Part shown: positions 1-15,558 of the stretch, in pieces
Numbering within the stretch: position 1 is the stretch's first letter
How the letters are laid out: each line of letters begins with the position of its first letter
Source of the DNA: a phage
Reading direction: 5' to 3' (one strand)
Length of the DNA stretch: 44,832 nt
Sequence record: PX055572.1
The notes under the pieces: generated by a model
Told to the model about the DNA's origin: nothing
Databases searched by the model: none
The model's input: only the letters and a program-made list of their open reading frames with translations
Program-made: the position numbers and the translations under genes

Positions 1-561
1 ATGCAAGGGGATTCTATGAAGCTGAAACTTAAGCAGCCATCGCCAGAGGTGGTGCAAGCTGCACATGAAGAAGCTGTTAGCGCAAACCGTCGCCGTAAAC
101 GACCGCGCGGTAAACAGAGCCTTTATCAATCATCCCGTAATTCTGCGGCATTGTGGGACCCGGACTACTGTGACGCGTTAATCGAGTTCTTCGACCGCAC
201 GTCGTGGGGGCTTGTGCCAACGTCTAAGGGTGATGAACGCCCACTGATTCAGGATAAGCCGCCGTCACTGGCCCGCTTCGCCTTACACATCGGCGTCACT
301 ATCCCTATTATTAAGCTTTGGCTGCGTGAGATTCCCGCATTTGCAGAAGCCTGGGAGACAGCACAGGCGCTGGAAGAGGCATACTTCACTGAGACAGGGG
401 CTGCGGGCATCTCGGCTACGTTTGCCGCGGCTAAACTGGGCCTCAGCAAAGAGAAACCGGTTGCATCCACCGAAGAACCAGCACCGACTGAGATTGTTTT
501 CAGTGTTGCGGAGCCTGTAGGTAAAATCGTAACAACGAACATGGGTGAGGTAGAGGAATGA
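1..561 (+). CDS. Terminase small subunit (possibly 5'-truncated at window edge; alternative start ATG 16)
   Basis: 186-aa ORF immediately upstream of, and overlapping by 4 nt, the Walker-A ATPase terminase gene; basic N-terminus (RRRKRPRGK) and helix-rich DNA-binding-like core; position only, no search run. Confidence 0.55.
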   Translation: MQGDSMKLKLKQPSPEVVQAAHEEAVSANRRRKRPRGKQSLYQSSRNSAALWDPDYCDALIEFFDRTSWGLVPTSKGDERPLIQDKPPSLARFALHIGVTIPIIKLWLREIPAFAEAWETAQALEEAYFTETGAAGISATFAAAKLGLSKEKPVASTEEPAPTEIVFSVAEPVGKIVTTNMGEVEE

Positions 562-1808
562 GTATTCAGCTATCCGCACCACAGGCACTGTTCCTGAATT
601 GCGATAACAAATACAAGGCCTATGTCGGAGGCTTCGGTAGCGGCAAGACATTTGTCGGCTGTCTCGACCTGCTTACGTTCATGCTCCGGAACCCGGGTAC
701 CCGCCTGGGCTACTTCGGCCCCACCTACCCGGCTATCCGCGACATCTTCTACCCGACATTCGAGGAAGCGGCTAACCTCCTCGGCCTCGATGTGCTGGTT
801 AAATCTGGCGACAAAGAAGTCGTGGTCACTCGCGGTAAGACGGTGCTCGGAACTGTTATCTGCCGCTCGATGGATAACCCCGGCTCGATAGTCGGCTTCA
901 AAATCGCGGCTGCGGTCGTGGATGAGCTGGACGTATTGAGCCGTGAGAAAGCCGAGCTGGCGTGGAACAAAATCGTAGCCCGCATGCGTCTGGTTATCCC
1001 GGGGGTAATTAACCACATCTCCGTCACCACGACTCCGGAAGGGTTCAAGTTCGTTTACGCCAAGTTCAAGGAGAACCCGACGCCGAGTTACTCAATGGTG
1101 CAGGCGTCCACTCACGAGAACGCCAGATTCCTGCCGCCGGATTACATTAGCTCGCTGACTGAGACTTACCCGGCGCAACTGATTAACGCGTATCTGAACG
1201 GTGAGTTTGTCAACCTGACATCCGGAAGCGTGTATTACGCATACGACCGACGCAAGCACCGCAGCAAAGAGACAATTCAACCGGGCGACACGCTGTACAT
1301 CGGGCAGGACTTCAACGTTACGAAGAACGCCAGCGCCGTGTATGTGCAGCGTAAAGATGGATGGCACGCGGTTGCAGAACTGAAGGGCCTGTTCGATACG
1401 CCGGACACCGTGCGCGTAATTACCGAGAAGTGGAAGTCACAAGGCCACCGCATCGTCGTTTACCCCGACGCTAGCGGCAAGAACCGTAAGACAAACTCGG
1501 CGTCAATCTCTGATATTGCATTACTCCAGCAGGCGGGTTTCGATGTTCGCGCTAAATCAGCCAACCCCCCGGTTAAAGACCGCGTTTTAGCCGTGAACAC
1601 CGCGCTGGAAAAAGGTAAGCTGTGGGTTAATGACCACTTATGTCCTGAGATAGCCAAGACGCTGGAACAGCAGGCATACGACGATAACGGAGAGCCGGCT
1701 AAAGACGGCATCATTGACCATATGGCTGATGCTCTCGGCTATCCTGTAGTTTATGAGATGCCGGTGGTTAAACCAGTAATCAACATCCCGGTGACTTTCG
1801 CACTTTAA
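558..1808 (+). CDS. Terminase large subunit (ATPase/nuclease)
   Basis: Walker A GGFGSGKT near N-terminus, Walker B-like VVDELD, 416 aa, followed directly by portal-sized ORF. Confidence 0.8.
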   Translation: MSIQLSAPQALFLNCDNKYKAYVGGFGSGKTFVGCLDLLTFMLRNPGTRLGYFGPTYPAIRDIFYPTFEEAANLLGLDVLVKSGDKEVVVTRGKTVLGTVICRSMDNPGSIVGFKIAAAVVDELDVLSREKAELAWNKIVARMRLVIPGVINHISVTTTPEGFKFVYAKFKENPTPSYSMVQASTHENARFLPPDYISSLTETYPAQLINAYLNGEFVNLTSGSVYYAYDRRKHRSKETIQPGDTLYIGQDFNVTKNASAVYVQRKDGWHAVAELKGLFDTPDTVRVITEKWKSQGHRIVVYPDASGKNRKTNSASISDIALLQQAGFDVRAKSANPPVKDRVLAVNTALEKGKLWVNDHLCPEIAKTLEQQAYDDNGEPAKDGIIDHMADALGYPVVYEMPVVKPVINIPVTFAL

Positions 1809-1820
1809 GAGGATTATTAA

Positions 1821-3290
1821 ATGTTAACTATGAACGGTCAGAATCAGGGTGTTAAGACAAAACACCGGGAATGGCTGCATCACTTCGATAAATGGCAGAA
1901 GGTACGCCACGCGCTGGAAGGCGACCTTATTCGCTATCTGCGCAACGTCGGGAAGAACGAACCTGACCCGACCTACGCAGCCCAGCGCCAGGAAGAATAC
2001 GAGAACGGTGCTATCTGTTACAACTTCACTAAACGTACCCTGGCGGGGATGACGGGGTCAGTGATGCGCAAAGACCCTGAGCAGATTATCCCGCCTGAAC
2101 TTGAGTACCTGTTGCACAACGCTGACGGTTCGGGTGTAGGGCTGTGGCAGCACGCGCAGGATACGTTAATGGAGATTGACTCGATAGGACGCGGTGGGTT
2201 GCTGGTGGATGCCCCGGAAACAGCCGCAGCAACGGCGGCAGAGCAGAACGCGGGATTATTAAACCCGGTAATCGCATTCTATACCGCGGAGAACATTATC
2301 AACTGGAGACTCACCCGCATCGGTTCAGTGAACCGCGTGACGATGGTTGTATTGCGTGAGGCATGGGAATACTCGGAACCAGGCGCTGAGTTTGAAACAA
2401 AATTCGGCGAGCAATACCGCGTCCTTGACCTGATTGACGGTCGCTACCGCCAGCGCATCTACCGCTTCGATGCCGAAGGTGGCGCACAGGATGAAGTAAT
2501 CGAAATCTTCCCGGAACTCGGCGAACAGTTGCGCGGTAAAATCCCGTTCACGTTCATTGGCGCAAGCAACAACGACGCCACTATAGACGATGCGCCTTTA
2601 CTGCCGTTAGCTGAGCTAAATATAGGACACTTCAGAAATTCGGCCGATGTGGAAGAGGCCAGCTTTATAGTAGGTCAACCGACACTGTTCATTGCCCCCG
2701 GCGAGAACATGAGCATGGAGCAGTGGAAAGAAGCCAACCCACACGGCATACGCATGGGGTCGCGTTCAGGCCACAACATCGGCTCCGGCGGAAATGCGTT
2801 TCTGGTTCAGGCGGCGGAAACTAACCTCGCCAAACAGAATATGCTGGATAAAGAGAATCAGGCCATCCAGATTGGCGCGCAGCTTATCACCCCGACGCAG
2901 CAAATCACCGCGGAATCGGCCCGCCTGCAACGCGGCGCCGACACGTCAGTCATGGCAACAATAGCACGTAATGTAAGCATGGCGTATACCGATGCGTTGC
3001 GCTGGGTTGCGGGTATGCTTGGGCTTAGTGAAGATACTGAGATTGAGTTCAAGCTGAATATGGAATTCTTCCTGCAACCTATGACAGCTCAGGACCGCGC
3101 TCAGTGGATGGCGGATATTAACGCTGGCCTGCTACCCGCCACCGCTTACTATGCTGCGTTGCGCAAGGCAGGTGTGACTGACTGGACAGATGAGGACATT
3201 CAGAACGCTATTGAAGACGCACCTCTGCCGTTGGGTTCTGTTGCTCAGGTAGCGGGAGAGATTCCGCAGTCGGCGCAGCAACAGGAGTAA
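1821..3290 (+). CDS. Portal protein
   Basis: 489-aa ORF directly after terminase large subunit with SD aagagga 8 nt upstream; gene order and size. Confidence 0.7.
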   Translation: MLTMNGQNQGVKTKHREWLHHFDKWQKVRHALEGDLIRYLRNVGKNEPDPTYAAQRQEEYENGAICYNFTKRTLAGMTGSVMRKDPEQIIPPELEYLLHNADGSGVGLWQHAQDTLMEIDSIGRGGLLVDAPETAAATAAEQNAGLLNPVIAFYTAENIINWRLTRIGSVNRVTMVVLREAWEYSEPGAEFETKFGEQYRVLDLIDGRYRQRIYRFDAEGGAQDEVIEIFPELGEQLRGKIPFTFIGASNNDATIDDAPLLPLAELNIGHFRNSADVEEASFIVGQPTLFIAPGENMSMEQWKEANPHGIRMGSRSGHNIGSGGNAFLVQAAETNLAKQNMLDKENQAIQIGAQLITPTQQITAESARLQRGADTSVMATIARNVSMAYTDALRWVAGMLGLSEDTEIEFKLNMEFFLQPMTAQDRAQWMADINAGLLPATAYYAALRKAGVTDWTDEDIQNAIEDAPLPLGSVAQVAGEIPQSAQQQE

Positions 3291-3296
3291 ATAGAA

Positions 3297-3322
3297 AGGC
3301 CCCGCTAGGGGCCTTAGTTTTA
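3297..3322. terminator. Bidirectional intrinsic terminator (portal / KilA-N convergent)
   Basis: AGGCCCC-gcta-GGGGCCT flanked by T-rich on + and - strands. Confidence 0.6.
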
Positions 3323-3973
3323 ACGTATATTAGCCGCACATTTACGCACAACCCGAGGTATCGCCTCTTTCAGTTCACCCCATGTATTAACGGCCTCCAT
3401 GTCAAGAAGCGTCACCAGAGCTTTCTGGATGTCACTTCGCAACTGATTGGTCTTCGCATCCTGAGAGTCCCATGTATCGAAACCCGTTACGTCGCGGATA
3501 TCTACGGATTCCTTTACCGCTTTAGCCACCTGTATGAAGTGTCCACTGTGGCCAATTCTTCCCTCCGTGCGCTCGATCATTCGACTAACGGCAGCGTTAA
3601 GCTCGACAAAGCTCACCGCGCCAATGTTTCGTAGTTCTACCTGCCGTTGTGTGATAAAGCGGTCGATAACGAGGAAATGGAAATAGGCGCTGTATTGCTC
3701 AGCAATATATACTGCCAGATGGAGACATGCAAAGGTGCGACCGTTTCGGCCTTTCGTCGCCCTTATGGCATTCTCGATTCCGAGTTGTTTTTCGCATTCC
3801 TCCTTGAAAATCTTGAAGCCATCCGTTGCCATGACCTGGCGAAGCTCTCTGGTCCCCATGCCGTTGTCTAAACGCCAACGGTTCATCTGGTCAACCAGCT
3901 CGTTTACGTTAATAAAGTTTTCACGGTCAAAAGTGATTTCTCCATAAGGGAACTCTAATGTTTGCAGTTTCAT
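3320..3973 (-). CDS. KilA-N domain protein (moron-like insert in head module)
   Basis: Reverse-strand 217-aa ORF between portal and head-morphogenesis genes; central segment GRTFACLHLAVYIAEQYSAYFHFLVI resembles KilA-N/APSES core (from memory); SD AGGAGA; own promoter with palindromic operator. Confidence 0.5.
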   Translation of the reverse strand: MKLQTLEFPYGEITFDRENFINVNELVDQMNRWRLDNGMGTRELRQVMATDGFKIFKEECEKQLGIENAIRATKGRNGRTFACLHLAVYIAEQYSAYFHFLVIDRFITQRQVELRNIGAVSFVELNAAVSRMIERTEGRIGHSGHFIQVAKAVKESVDIRDVTGFDTWDSQDAKTNQLRSDIQKALVTLLDMEAVNTWGELKEAIPRVVRKCAANIR

Positions 3974-4000
3974 GTGTATTTCTCCTGTTTAAGTGTACGT

Positions 4001-4034
4001 TTAAATTCTACATTTGAATGTAGAATTTAATCAA
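4001..4034 (-). promoter_or_regulatory. Promoter TTGATT-N18-TAGAAT for KilA-N gene, overlapped by 14-bp inverted repeat operator
   Basis: + strand 4001-4030 TTAAATTCTACATT-tg-AATGTAGAATTTAA is a perfect 14-bp inverted repeat; -35 (rev) 4029-4034, -10 (rev) 4005-4010. Confidence 0.5.
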
Positions 4035-4115
4035 GCTCTTTTTAACCTTAAATGCGTATGATTATGCCAATACGTTACCGACTGATATGATTGTCATATC
4101 GAAACAGGAGGGTAT

Positions 4116-5159
4116 ATGAGCTTACTGACATCACTAATCAGCCACCAGATTTGGCTGCAACGCACCGCATCTGGTGAAGTGAAAGACCTAGCACCGTTCA
4201 TTCAGGAGATGCGGGACGAAATAAAACGGCAGGTGCTGTTATTCGGTGACGACGGGCGAAGCACTGCCCGACTGAATAAATTGTTACGCGACCTCGAAGA
4301 AGCGCTAACTGGACTTACAGGTGACTGGCAAACAAAGCTGACAGAAGACCTTAAGGAACTGGCGGCGTATGAGGCTGAGTGGAACGTAAAGACACTGACC
4401 GCCAACGTAAACGCGGAATTTGTTACGCCTACCGCTGAACAGGTGTGGGCCGCCGCCGAGTTTCAACCCTTATCGTTGAGCGACAAGCCTGTTGACTTCA
4501 CTAAGCTGATGTCAGGTTGGGGTGAAGCGGAGGTGGCGCGCCTGGTCACCGGCGTTAAGATGGGCTTTGTTCAGGGCAAGACAACACGGCAGATTGTTAA
4601 GAATGTTGTTGGCGCTGGTGGACTAGCCGACATCTCAGAACGTAACGCGACTACGGTAATCCGCACCGCGCTGTCCCACGTATCCAACGAGGCCCGTAAC
4701 GAGACGTACCGCCAGAACGACGACATCATCGAGAAATATGAGTGGGTGTCAACTTTGGACAGCCGTACCAGCGCTATTTGCAGGGCCAGAGACGGAATGA
4801 CGTGGGAAATCGGTAAAGGGCCGACACCCCCAGCCCATCCGAATTGTCGGTCGTGCACGGCTCCGGTAATCAGTTCAGAGTTCGACTTCCTCGATAAAGG
4901 CGCAAAACGGGCGGCTAAGGGCGCTGACGGCGGCACTCAGGTAAGCGCGGACACAACATATTACGAGTTCCTGAAACAACAACCAGCATGGTTTCAGGAC
5001 CAGGCGCTCGGTCCTGTTCGTGGTAAGATTTTCCGTAACAGCGGTATATCGCCGGAAGAGTTTCGCGTAAAATCTGTAGATGGTTTCGGGAATCCGCTCA
5101 CGCTTAAGCAGATGGCGGAACTCGATAAACGTGTTGCTGATTATCTGAAAGGGGATTAA
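4116..5159 (+). CDS. Head morphogenesis / minor head protein (Mu gpF / SPP1 gp7-like)
   Basis: 347 aa, SD caggaggg; C-terminal HPNCRSC motif typical of Mu F-like head morphogenesis proteins (from memory); position after portal. Confidence 0.65.
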   Translation: MSLLTSLISHQIWLQRTASGEVKDLAPFIQEMRDEIKRQVLLFGDDGRSTARLNKLLRDLEEALTGLTGDWQTKLTEDLKELAAYEAEWNVKTLTANVNAEFVTPTAEQVWAAAEFQPLSLSDKPVDFTKLMSGWGEAEVARLVTGVKMGFVQGKTTRQIVKNVVGAGGLADISERNATTVIRTALSHVSNEARNETYRQNDDIIEKYEWVSTLDSRTSAICRARDGMTWEIGKGPTPPAHPNCRSCTAPVISSEFDFLDKGAKRAAKGADGGTQVSADTTYYEFLKQQPAWFQDQALGPVRGKIFRNSGISPEEFRVKSVDGFGNPLTLKQMAELDKRVADYLKGD

Positions 5160-5716: not shown

Positions 5717-6061
5717 TCATTTGCATTTCTCGTCGTATGTTTGTTGTAACTGCGACAGACGATTACCGGCTGTCATCTCGTCCATAGAAGGCCCAGCGCC
5801 TGTGTCCATAAAGAACAGCGGAACAATCAGGAATGCGCCTGTAACACCGAGTACAACGTTAGTACCTATTTGCTTATTAACACGGTGCGTAGCGTTGGCT
5901 TGAGCTTGTTTTGTCGTGGCGATTCTCGATAGTAACTGATTACATGTTGCCGTTGTATCCCCCGCCTGATAAACCTGTAAAGCTGGGTCTGGCAACGACC
6001 TTACGCAACCACTCAAACAAACGGCTACAACACCCGCTACTGCTAATTTAATATATTTCAT
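5717..6061 (-). CDS. Lipoprotein (candidate superinfection-exclusion / receptor-blocking)
   Basis: Signal peptide MKYIKLAVAGVVAVCLSGC with lipobox LSGC; reverse-strand insert in structural module; translationally coupled to upstream small peptide. Confidence 0.55.
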   Translation of the reverse strand: MKYIKLAVAGVVAVCLSGCVRSLPDPALQVYQAGDTTATCNQLLSRIATTKQAQANATHRVNKQIGTNVVLGVTGAFLIVPLFFMDTGAGPSMDEMTAGNRLSQLQQTYDEKCK

Positions 6062-15380: not shown

Positions 15381-15422
15381 AACATAACTCCTGATTTGAG
15401 ATAACATCGTTGGTGTAAGTGA

Positions 15423-15451: not shown

Positions 15452-15558
15452 GTAGTGTGCTAGAATAATTTTGCGCCTAGTGTCGCACACGAAAAGCGGG
15501 TGGTTCCCGTCTGGCGCATTTCCTTTAACCAGTAACCTCTTAACCAAAGGATTAAAGA

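Follow-up and report, generated by a model that had tools for sequence, protein, structure and literature searches.

A KilA-N gene with a predicted cognate operator in its promoter at the portal/head junction of Guernseyvirinae-type phages

Inside the head operon of the siphophage analysed here lies a gene of the opposite strand, and a perfect inverted repeat is found in its promoter region. This raises the question of what the gene encodes, how it came to stand at this place, and which protein the repeat may serve.

The stretch of DNA that we analysed as a whole (44.8 kb; called the window in the following) represents a complete-looking Guernseyvirinae-type siphophage genome, and its nearest record is that of Escherichia phage EcoPhCCP1. 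Genes for the terminase, the portal protein, a head-morphogenesis protein and a Hoc-like protein are all found on its plus strand. The original prediction of a reverse-strand gene for a 217-aa protein within the head operon proved right: the ORF is real, strongly conserved and starts with an ATG at 3973-3971 (minus strand). Its G+C content is 48.5%, compared with 54.6% and 53.4% in the neighbouring genes and 32% in the intergenic region. Rfam gave matches at chance level only in this region, and no tRNA was found there. The features of the junction are the following:

558-1808, plus strand: terminase gene
1821-3290, plus strand: portal gene
3279-4163 (approximate): block near-identical to EcoPhCCP1 (9 differences in 885 bp), with flanks that are ~12% divergent
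3296-3315: G+C-rich hairpin AAGGCCCC-GCTA-GGGGCCTT where the portal and KilA-N genes converge, predicted to be a shared terminator
3320-3973, minus strand: KilA-N gene, 217 aa, between the portal and head-morphogenesis genes
3728-3859, minus strand: type-determining patch, codons 39-82, predicted helix-turn-helix and wing; residues 39-50 are MGTRELRQVMAT
3986-3982, minus strand: ribosome-binding site AGGAG, 8 nt 5' of the ATG and kept in related loci
4001-4030: perfect palindrome TTAAATTCTACATT-TG-AATGTAGAATTTAA, predicted operator of type A
4010-4005, minus strand: -10 hexamer TAGAAT from a promoter scan, within the promoter-proximal palindrome arm
4034-4029, minus strand: -35 hexamer TTGATT from a promoter scan, sharing 2 bp with the outer end of the 14-bp arm
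4064-4091, plus strand: candidate promoter of the head-morphogenesis operon, ATGCCA-16 nt-TG-n-TATGAT (extended -10), by consensus only
4116-5159, plus strand: head-morphogenesis gene, Mu-F/SPP1-gp7-like

Sequence inspection showed extended -10 motifs also 5' of the downstream gene where this gene stands in other contexts.

A Pfam search with the 217-aa protein revealed a KilA-N match (PF04383) for residues 13-105 with an E value of 3e-4 and 21.0 bits, which is just under the gathering score of 23.8 and sets the protein apart from the KilA-N/APSES proteins P1 KilA, poxvirus N1R/p28, fungal Mbp1/Swi4 and Bqt4. KilA-N matches at an E value of 1 or better were obtained for 11 of 12 close homologues (best 2.9e-5). 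Among 1.84 billion representative proteins, a profile search detected 138 relatives, mostly 200-230 aa long and built on the same two-domain plan, and 35 of the 51 remote relatives tested matched the Pfam KilA-N family (best E = 7e-18). As a free-standing gene between conserved structural genes, the locus resembles those of the GIY-YIG/T5orf172 homing-endonuclease-like proteins that bear KilA-N or Bro-N domains and of their domesticated derivative CapR (PMC8096241), and a few longer remote relatives do carry extra N-terminal GIY-YIG, T5orf172 or MUG113 nuclease domains; in contrast, Pfam detected no nuclease domain in the 217-aa protein itself.

Residues ~1-95 were found to have the KilA-N/APSES fold of a DNA-binding domain, composed of a beta-hairpin and a winged helix-turn-helix. 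Fold and family evidence together confirm the KilA-N assignment. DNA binding is predicted, with indirect support from co-variation of the protein with the neighbouring palindrome (see below). Residues ~96-217 form a helical domain for which, unlike the KilA-N/APSES proteins named above, no Pfam family was detected. Structural matching showed its resemblance to the linker and four-helix bundle of DdrC from Deinococcus radiodurans (PDB 7qvb; 15% sequence identity). Homology to DdrC is not established by this match, because four-helix bundles are common; DdrC itself binds DNA without sequence specificity and senses breaks (PMC9303277). The resemblance to the dimerising part of DdrC suggests that the C-terminal domain probably dimerises.

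Searches of the PDB by sequence revealed no match with a close profile, and a wide profile detected only Mbp1 (E = 0.2). In the profile alignment with residues 14-89 of Mbp1, a variable patch of the window protein (residues 39-82) falls on helices A and B and the wing. From this alignment we infer that residues 41-64 of the window protein form both helices of the helix-turn-helix, with the wing at residues 65-85.

Close homologues of the protein are almost invariant in their C-terminal half and variable in residues 12-83. Between the window and L007, a contig from a different phage lineage described below, codons 83-215 showed 70 synonymous and 11 nonsynonymous codon differences, and this part of the gene is under strong purifying selection. 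The corresponding synonymous/nonsynonymous counts for codons 39-82 were 15/10, 18/14 and 11/27 against increasingly different types of the protein.

In many GenBank records the protein is labelled 'amidase' (PHROG 6095). Neither Pfam nor NCBIfam detected an amidase, none was among the structural matches, and the label appears to be a propagated annotation. A literature search found no paper on the KilA-N gene of the window, on its promoter or on Jerseyvirus transcription, and to our knowledge, after searching the literature, there is no phage KilA-N protein with a defined operator or known regulatory logic.

The origin of the gene at this junction can be read from K1G (type Kagunavirus), in which the portal gene ends at 2745 and is followed by a hairpin (AGCCCCGAAAGGGGCT) and the start of the head gene (ATGAGCTTACTGACAT), with no ORF between them. 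The equivalent hairpin of the window lies 4 nt past the stop of the KilA-N gene and 5 nt past that of the portal gene and folds as DNA at -9.9 and -9.2 kcal/mol (z about -3). Its presence in K1G without the gene implies that the hairpin is ancestral to the junction and that the cassette is the insert. The original prediction had placed a bidirectional terminator at 3297-3322 as a flank of the KilA-N moron. A hairpin is indeed present (3296-3315), but the scan found it terminator-like on the minus strand only, because its plus-strand tail consists of just 4 T, and as K1G has its equivalent, it does not belong to the insert.

Morons were reportedly described by Hendrix and colleagues as units of promoter, gene and terminator that stand between two genes which are direct neighbours in related phages. 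The cassette is missing at the K1G junction, has its own predicted promoter and a lower G+C content, and moves independently of the phage backbone, all of which bear out the claim that it is a moron; a predicted terminator and the opposite orientation are further likenesses. Unlike in a moron as described, the terminator hairpin pre-exists in the cassette-free K1G, and the gene is nearly universal in Jerseyviruses. Among the Escherichia phage records, 89 match the flanking genes and only 3 carry the KilA-N gene, whereas ~335 Salmonella phage records carry it. The latter are mostly Jerseyviruses, and the gene was found at the same portal/head junction in every Jerseyvirus locus examined; in the Salmonella Jerseyviruses it is nearly universal, not sporadic. 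All carriers are virulent siphophages belonging to the Guernseyvirinae or similar to them. As the carrier is virulent, the cassette does not follow the lysogenic-conversion logic of a typical moron.

Movement of the cassette is seen on two scales. Phage ASO78B carries the gene and its promoter, both of the type found in the window (type A, see below), in a different context 3' of the tape-measure gene, and its nucleotide homology to the window ends at ~4042, which is ~8 bp past the -35 hexamer and ~12 bp past the palindrome. L007-L009, three contigs of 45-48 kb related to ASO78B, likewise contain a type-A gene and its promoter in a different context, together with the upstream sequence of ASO78B, and in a metagenomic contig (L041) a variant cassette is flanked by a helicase-like gene on one side and the gene for the small terminase on the other. 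Comparison with EcoPhCCP1 showed 88.0% identity for the portal gene, 88.5% for the head gene and 99.5% for the KilA-N gene. Such a near-identical block in divergent flanks indicates a recent exchange by recombination in the flanking genes. As judged from these sequence comparisons, the cassette is a horizontally mobile transcription unit, and a moron in the E. coli phage lineage of the window.

The inverted repeat in front of the gene is present exactly as it had been described, with two arms of 14 nt (4001-4014 and 4017-4030) that are 100% complementary and separated by a 2-nt spacer. Its conserved core comprises 4003-4028 in an 11+4+11 layout. No other perfect inverted repeat exists in the window if arms of 10 nt or more and spacers of up to 10 nt are considered, and 3 12-mer seeds were observed against a mean of 0.04 in block shuffles. 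The window has 7 sites of an AATAG-N4-CTATT palindrome elsewhere, to which the repeat had been said to be unrelated; in sequence the two are indeed unrelated. Neither a second copy nor a half-site of the repeat was found elsewhere in the window, a search of 185,579 genomes of bacteria and archaea gave no exact copy, no meaningful match turned up among 5,426 genomes of E. coli, and in IMG/VR it was detected only within the same cassette. With a single palindrome in the phage and none detected in host genomes, the target of the protein would not be another copy of this operator. Boxes of LexA, ArgR and TyrR do not fit the palindrome, and the type-specific variation described below argues against any host factor.

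The palindrome also overlaps the gene's own promoter, as proposed. By consensus only, this is a sigma-70-like promoter with a -35 hexamer TTGATT and a -10 hexamer TAGAAT at a spacing of 18 nt, and the palindrome fills it from the -35 through the -10. A promoter is annotated at the homologous place in the GenBank records of the phages AG11 and Jersey.

We compared this arrangement in 69 loci carrying a close homologue of the gene, with all promoters read in the sense of the gene. This revealed at least four cognate types, in which a distinct promoter repeat in the same register is combined with distinct residues 39-82. The repeat is a 26-bp palindrome in most types and consists of direct repeats in one. 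The types are given with their residues 40-50, their promoters and the loci in which they were found:

Type A: GTRE[LI]RQVMAT; TTGATT or TTGCAA, then AAATTCTACAT-N4-ATGTAGAATTT; 20 of 20 loci, for example the window, EcoPhCCP1, L007-9 and ASO78B, with the variant AAAAGCTACAT in L048-53
Type B: GFKHLRQLMTT; TTGAC-AAATGGTATAT-N4-ATATACCATTT; 28 of 31 loci, Jersey and many others
Type C: QPRNLAQILKT; TTGCAT-N18-TATAAT, without a long palindrome; SETP3 and SE2
Type D: GEKNLSQLLST; TTGAC-GAATACTATAT-CTAG-GTGTAGTATTC; S55
Type E: GTKNLSQLLAT; TTGACT-AAATACTACGT-CTGG-ATGTAGTATTT; L044-47
Type F: GDKNLSQLLAT; direct TACTACA repeats; L041-43

Across the 69 loci the type of the protein predicts the type of the palindrome, with AG11 as the sole complication, although the palindrome and the variable coding patch are only ~150 bp apart and the association could therefore partly be linkage. 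This co-variation of the palindrome with the predicted helix-turn-helix and wing supports, at the level of sequence, the proposal of a separate, probably autoregulated circuit. The remaining 3 of the 31 type-B loci are copies of AG11, which has retained the B promoter and, downstream of it, carries an additional type-A palindrome with a -35 decayed to TCGGTT. The AG11-like phages, with a type-A palindrome beside a type-B gene, count against the palindrome as cognate operator. Proteins with the motif xKNLSQLL[SA]T have ATACTA-based repeats in 10 of 10 loci; the repeats of types D and E are inverted, those of type F direct. Type C (SETP3-like) is a large type with a promoter near consensus; because it has no long palindrome, autoregulation via such a site would not be universal in the family. 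In Vibrio phage 1.054.O, the only remote locus inspected, the promoter showed weak repeats only.

The palindromes share the 11+4+11 geometry, and their register is identical in types A, B, D and E. In the palindromes the promoter-proximal arm includes the -10 (TAGAAT, TACCAT or TAGTAT). At the corresponding place, the -10 of the types other than that of the window reads TACCAT, TAGTAT, TATAAT or TATACT, and their -35 reads TTGACA, TTGCAA, TTGACG, TTGACT or TTGCAT. Most differences between the half-sites fall on positions 5, 6 and 9. The first two of these coincide with positions 3-4 of the -10 hexamer, which belong to the least constrained part of this hexamer.

Alignment of 12 distinct palindromes showed complementarity at 96% of the arm positions and changes on both sides in 4 of the 11 pairs; these symmetric changes are not independent, because template switching within hairpins can copy one arm onto the other and thereby equalise them, so that symmetry alone is no proof of selection. 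The complementarity score was reached by none of 500 shuffles, and no slid register came close. Template switching does occur within the palindromes, as is evident from near-identical phages that carry the centre in opposite orientations (type A, TCAA/TTGA; type B, CTAT/ATAG and TTAT/ATAA; type E, GTCTGGAT/ATCCAGAC). The window and EcoPhCCP1 are one such pair, as 2 of their 9 differences fall on 4015-4016 (TG vs CA) and represent an inverted palindrome centre.

Identities of the consecutive segments, within and between types, were the following:

Palindrome: 0.86 within, 0.65 between types
5' UTR and codons 1-38 (142 nt): 0.87 within, 0.82 between types
Codons 39-82 (nucleotide identity): 0.86 within, 0.66 between types
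Codons 83-217: 0.83 within, 0.83 between types

The two type-specific patches, palindrome and codons 39-82, are hence separated by DNA that does not follow type. In the two non-type segments the window is nearer to type-B Jerseyviruses (0.89-0.94) than to other type-A loci (0.78-0.82). The type-A arms of the window recur unchanged in the L007/ASO78B lineage, where the gene beside them is only ~78-85% identical.

With a probability of roughly 0.6, we read these data as negative autoregulation of the KilA-N gene by a dimer of its own product at the palindrome, a scheme in which we infer binding, dimerisation and repression. The palindrome would be the cognate operator of the KilA-N protein, and a dimer would occupy its two 11-bp half-sites (AAATTCTACAT), which span the -35 to the -10. 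Once bound, the dimer would exclude RNA polymerase from the gene's own sigma-70 promoter, and the gene would in this way keep its expression at a low set level. Autoregulation fits the position of the site, the conservation of its arms amid diverged DNA and the cognate co-variation, and also the single site in the phage, its absence from bacterial genomes and a C-terminal domain of a dimerising kind. Similar relations are found in heteroimmune pairs such as lambdoid cI/cro and the C proteins of P2 and WPhi, where a palindromic site also lies over the core promoter beside the regulator gene, several specificity types exist in similar phages, and recognition residues co-vary with the site. In contrast to these pairs, the present locus combines another DNA-binding fold with only one operator; a divergent partner of the regulator is absent, and so is lysogeny.

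Rather than, or in addition to, serving autoregulation, the palindrome may be the self-recognition site of a module for competition between phages, in which the protein would act on foreign DNA or on the host and the carrier's own palindrome would mark or titrate it and so spare the carrier. We regard this as rather unlikely. The model for it is the prophage-borne BstA, which has a KilA-N-like N-terminal and a separate C-terminal domain and is neutralised by a cognate DNA element, aba, at the start of its own gene (PMC8585504). BstA/aba and the present locus are alike in that the cognate element is co-located with the gene and that specificity differs between variants. A competition module would also agree with the presence of several specificity types in one phage genus, combined with a nearly invariant C-terminal 'effector' half, and with a cassette that is 99.5% identical in backbones only 88% identical. 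Tandem genes of different type point in the same direction: TUMS_E19 has D and B genes in tandem and retains, as a scar, a C promoter with five codons, and in five further records two places match. Displaced promoters have also left scars in L044-47, where a decayed A-like palindrome and ribosome-binding site lie upstream of the E cassette. However, aba overlaps the coding start, depends on direct repeats inside the gene and is not described as a promoter operator (PMC8585504), which differs from a promoter palindrome. The gene of the window lies in a virulent phage and not on a prophage, and in a PADLOC search no sequence relation to BstA was detected beyond the KilA-N domain class. This search, whose database may hold no BstA model, gave no BstA match for the window protein, only a weak one to the unrelated candidate PDC-S22 (E = 0.002).

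Carried further, the same idea would make the KilA-N protein and the palindrome a 'heteroimmunity-like' self/non-self module of virulent phages, which we likewise hold to be doubtful. The C-terminal domain would then act against co-infecting relatives or the host, the palindrome would provide self-recognition, and conflict between phages would drive the types, the tandem stacking, the promoter scars and the recent horizontal sweeps.

It is improbable that the palindrome is bound by another protein, either a host factor or another phage regulator, and that its association with the KilA-N gene is mere co-inheritance. Such a binder would be compatible with the distance of only ~150 bp between the two patches and with type C, which works without the palindrome, and the 7 AATAG-N4-CTATT sites of the window indicate that other regulators exist. 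Yet the association persists where the intervening and downstream segments have been reshuffled, and also across three genomic contexts. No host factor could track three to four different half-site sequences, and for a single site beside a DNA-binding gene, with none in host genomes, the gene's own product is the simplest candidate.

The centre inversions, which occur in four sequence families and in part between near-identical phages, could suggest a mainly structural role of the palindrome, as a cruciform or hairpin that promotes recombination or cassette exchange, is kept perfect by template switching and needs no specific protein. Folding of its single strands is indeed favourable (-9.5 and -9.8 kcal/mol, z -6.6 and -6.8), the homology of the ASO78B cassette stops ~12 bp past it, and AG11 has tandem promoter modules. 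Nevertheless, we consider a purely structural role very unlikely, since all types keep the same register to the -35 and -10, the half-sites are type-specific and track the protein, the recently exchanged block ends at ~3279 and ~4163 and not at the palindrome, and an AT-rich 14-bp stem would form a modest cruciform only. Least credible by far is a stem-loop acting in the transcript, for instance as a 5' UTR hairpin or antisense terminator: in AG11-like phages the B promoter does lie upstream of the type-A palindrome, which would then be part of a transcript, but in the window the predicted start is located downstream of the -10 inside the palindrome, so that the mRNA would lack the palindrome and the latter would act as DNA, not RNA, and the AT-rich stem has no T tract as in a terminator and matches Rfam at chance level only. 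Another binder, a structural element and an RNA hairpin are each less well supported than autoregulation.

Among the DNA-binding domains found in phages and large DNA viruses, KilA-N is one of the most widespread. Morons are a known kind, and so are DNA-binding genes that regulate themselves; what is new in this locus is a well-delimited member with an unusually informative series of KilA-N proteins and predicted operators. The locus provides at least three pairs of protein and predicted site on one scaffold; the proteins differ in a few residues of the predicted helix-turn-helix and wing, the sites at half-site positions 5, 6 and 9. This natural series would be sufficient to probe DNA recognition by KilA-N in a small cross-binding matrix. 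The analysis also corrects the 'amidase' mis-annotation, which is carried by many Salmonella phage genomes considered for biocontrol, and draws attention to an accessory gene that passes between phages of Salmonella and of E. coli.

Comparison of the centre of the promoter palindrome (4001-4030), the predicted operator of the KilA-N gene, in the window (4015-4016) and in the related loci L002, L005, L017, L018, L019, L044, L046 and L064-L076 revealed both orientations among near-identical phages: TCAA and TTGA, CTAT and ATAG, TTAT and ATAA, and GTCTGGAT and ATCCAGAC. Two of the nine differences between the window and the closest record, Escherichia phage EcoPhCCP1, over 885 bp are a flip of this centre at 4015-4016. 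Judged from the sequences, such flips look like frequent inversion via template switching within hairpin or cruciform structures.

In type-E cassettes, one of the pairings of KilA-N helix-turn-helix/wing sequence with promoter repeat, the palindrome reaches far past its core.

L046, about 1435-1484: perfect 21-bp arms including the -35, GAACTATTGACTAAATACTAC-N8
L044, 1419-1498: 39-nt arms with 79% complementarity, reaching the RBS

This extension implies a putative mirror-image promoter on the opposite strand of type-E cassettes.

Stacked cassettes and a duplicated promoter module were observed in Salmonella phages. TUMS_E19 (OL519843 3323-5014; L031/L032) carries two tandem KilA-N genes, type D followed by type B, both preceded by a palindrome promoter of their own. 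A remnant type-C promoter persists there as well, along with codons 1-5 of a type-C gene; two matching places were also found in five further phage records. In AG11 (JX297445 about 3974-4177; L001/L006) the promoter module is duplicated, and the B promoter with its palindrome is followed by a repeated 30-bp spacer, a type-A palindrome bearing a degraded -35 and the type-B gene. Many other Salmonella phage records align to the window at the AG11-like promoter region in two pieces, and the 62-bp insert of AG11 is probably common to them.

Another palindrome, unrelated to the one at 4001-4030, recurs in the window, and one copy lies close to an RNA family match.

6186, 15422, 28805, 32493, 35222, 38929 and 40056: seven copies of AATAG-N4-CTATT
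15470-15534, forward strand: match to int-alpA RNA (Rfam RF02996) that, at 36.6 bits, narrowly exceeds the gathering score (35.8)

Several copies are adjoined by GTGTCAA or TGCACA, which on the opposite strand reads as a TTGACA-like -35, and the copies resemble a distinct family of promoter-associated operators that would serve another regulator. The copy at 15422, AATAGTACGCTATT, has the int-alpA match about 35 nt downstream of it.

The structural region contains a second reverse-strand gene.

5717-6061, reverse strand: 114-aa gene

Its product has a lipoprotein-type signal MKYIKLAVAGVVAVCLSGC and is assigned to PHROG 13472, a family with no function attached; the G+C content dips to 0.42-0.46 at the gene. 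It may be another moron, e.g. encoding a surface-exclusion lipoprotein.

The head-morphogenesis gene is far longer in some relatives, with 619 and 645 aa (L072 1-222, L066 1-258). These long genes also match an intein-splicing domain, and together the two features suggest an intein within the Mu-F-like head protein.

Structural comparison of the whole model of the KilA-N protein identified Deinococcus radiodurans DdrC (PDB 7qvb; PMC9303277) as the top PDB match, as did that of the C-terminal domain alone (residues 96-217; window 3320-3688). DdrC has been described as being without structural homologues. On these modelled structures, DdrC and the KilA-N two-domain proteins may be distantly related.
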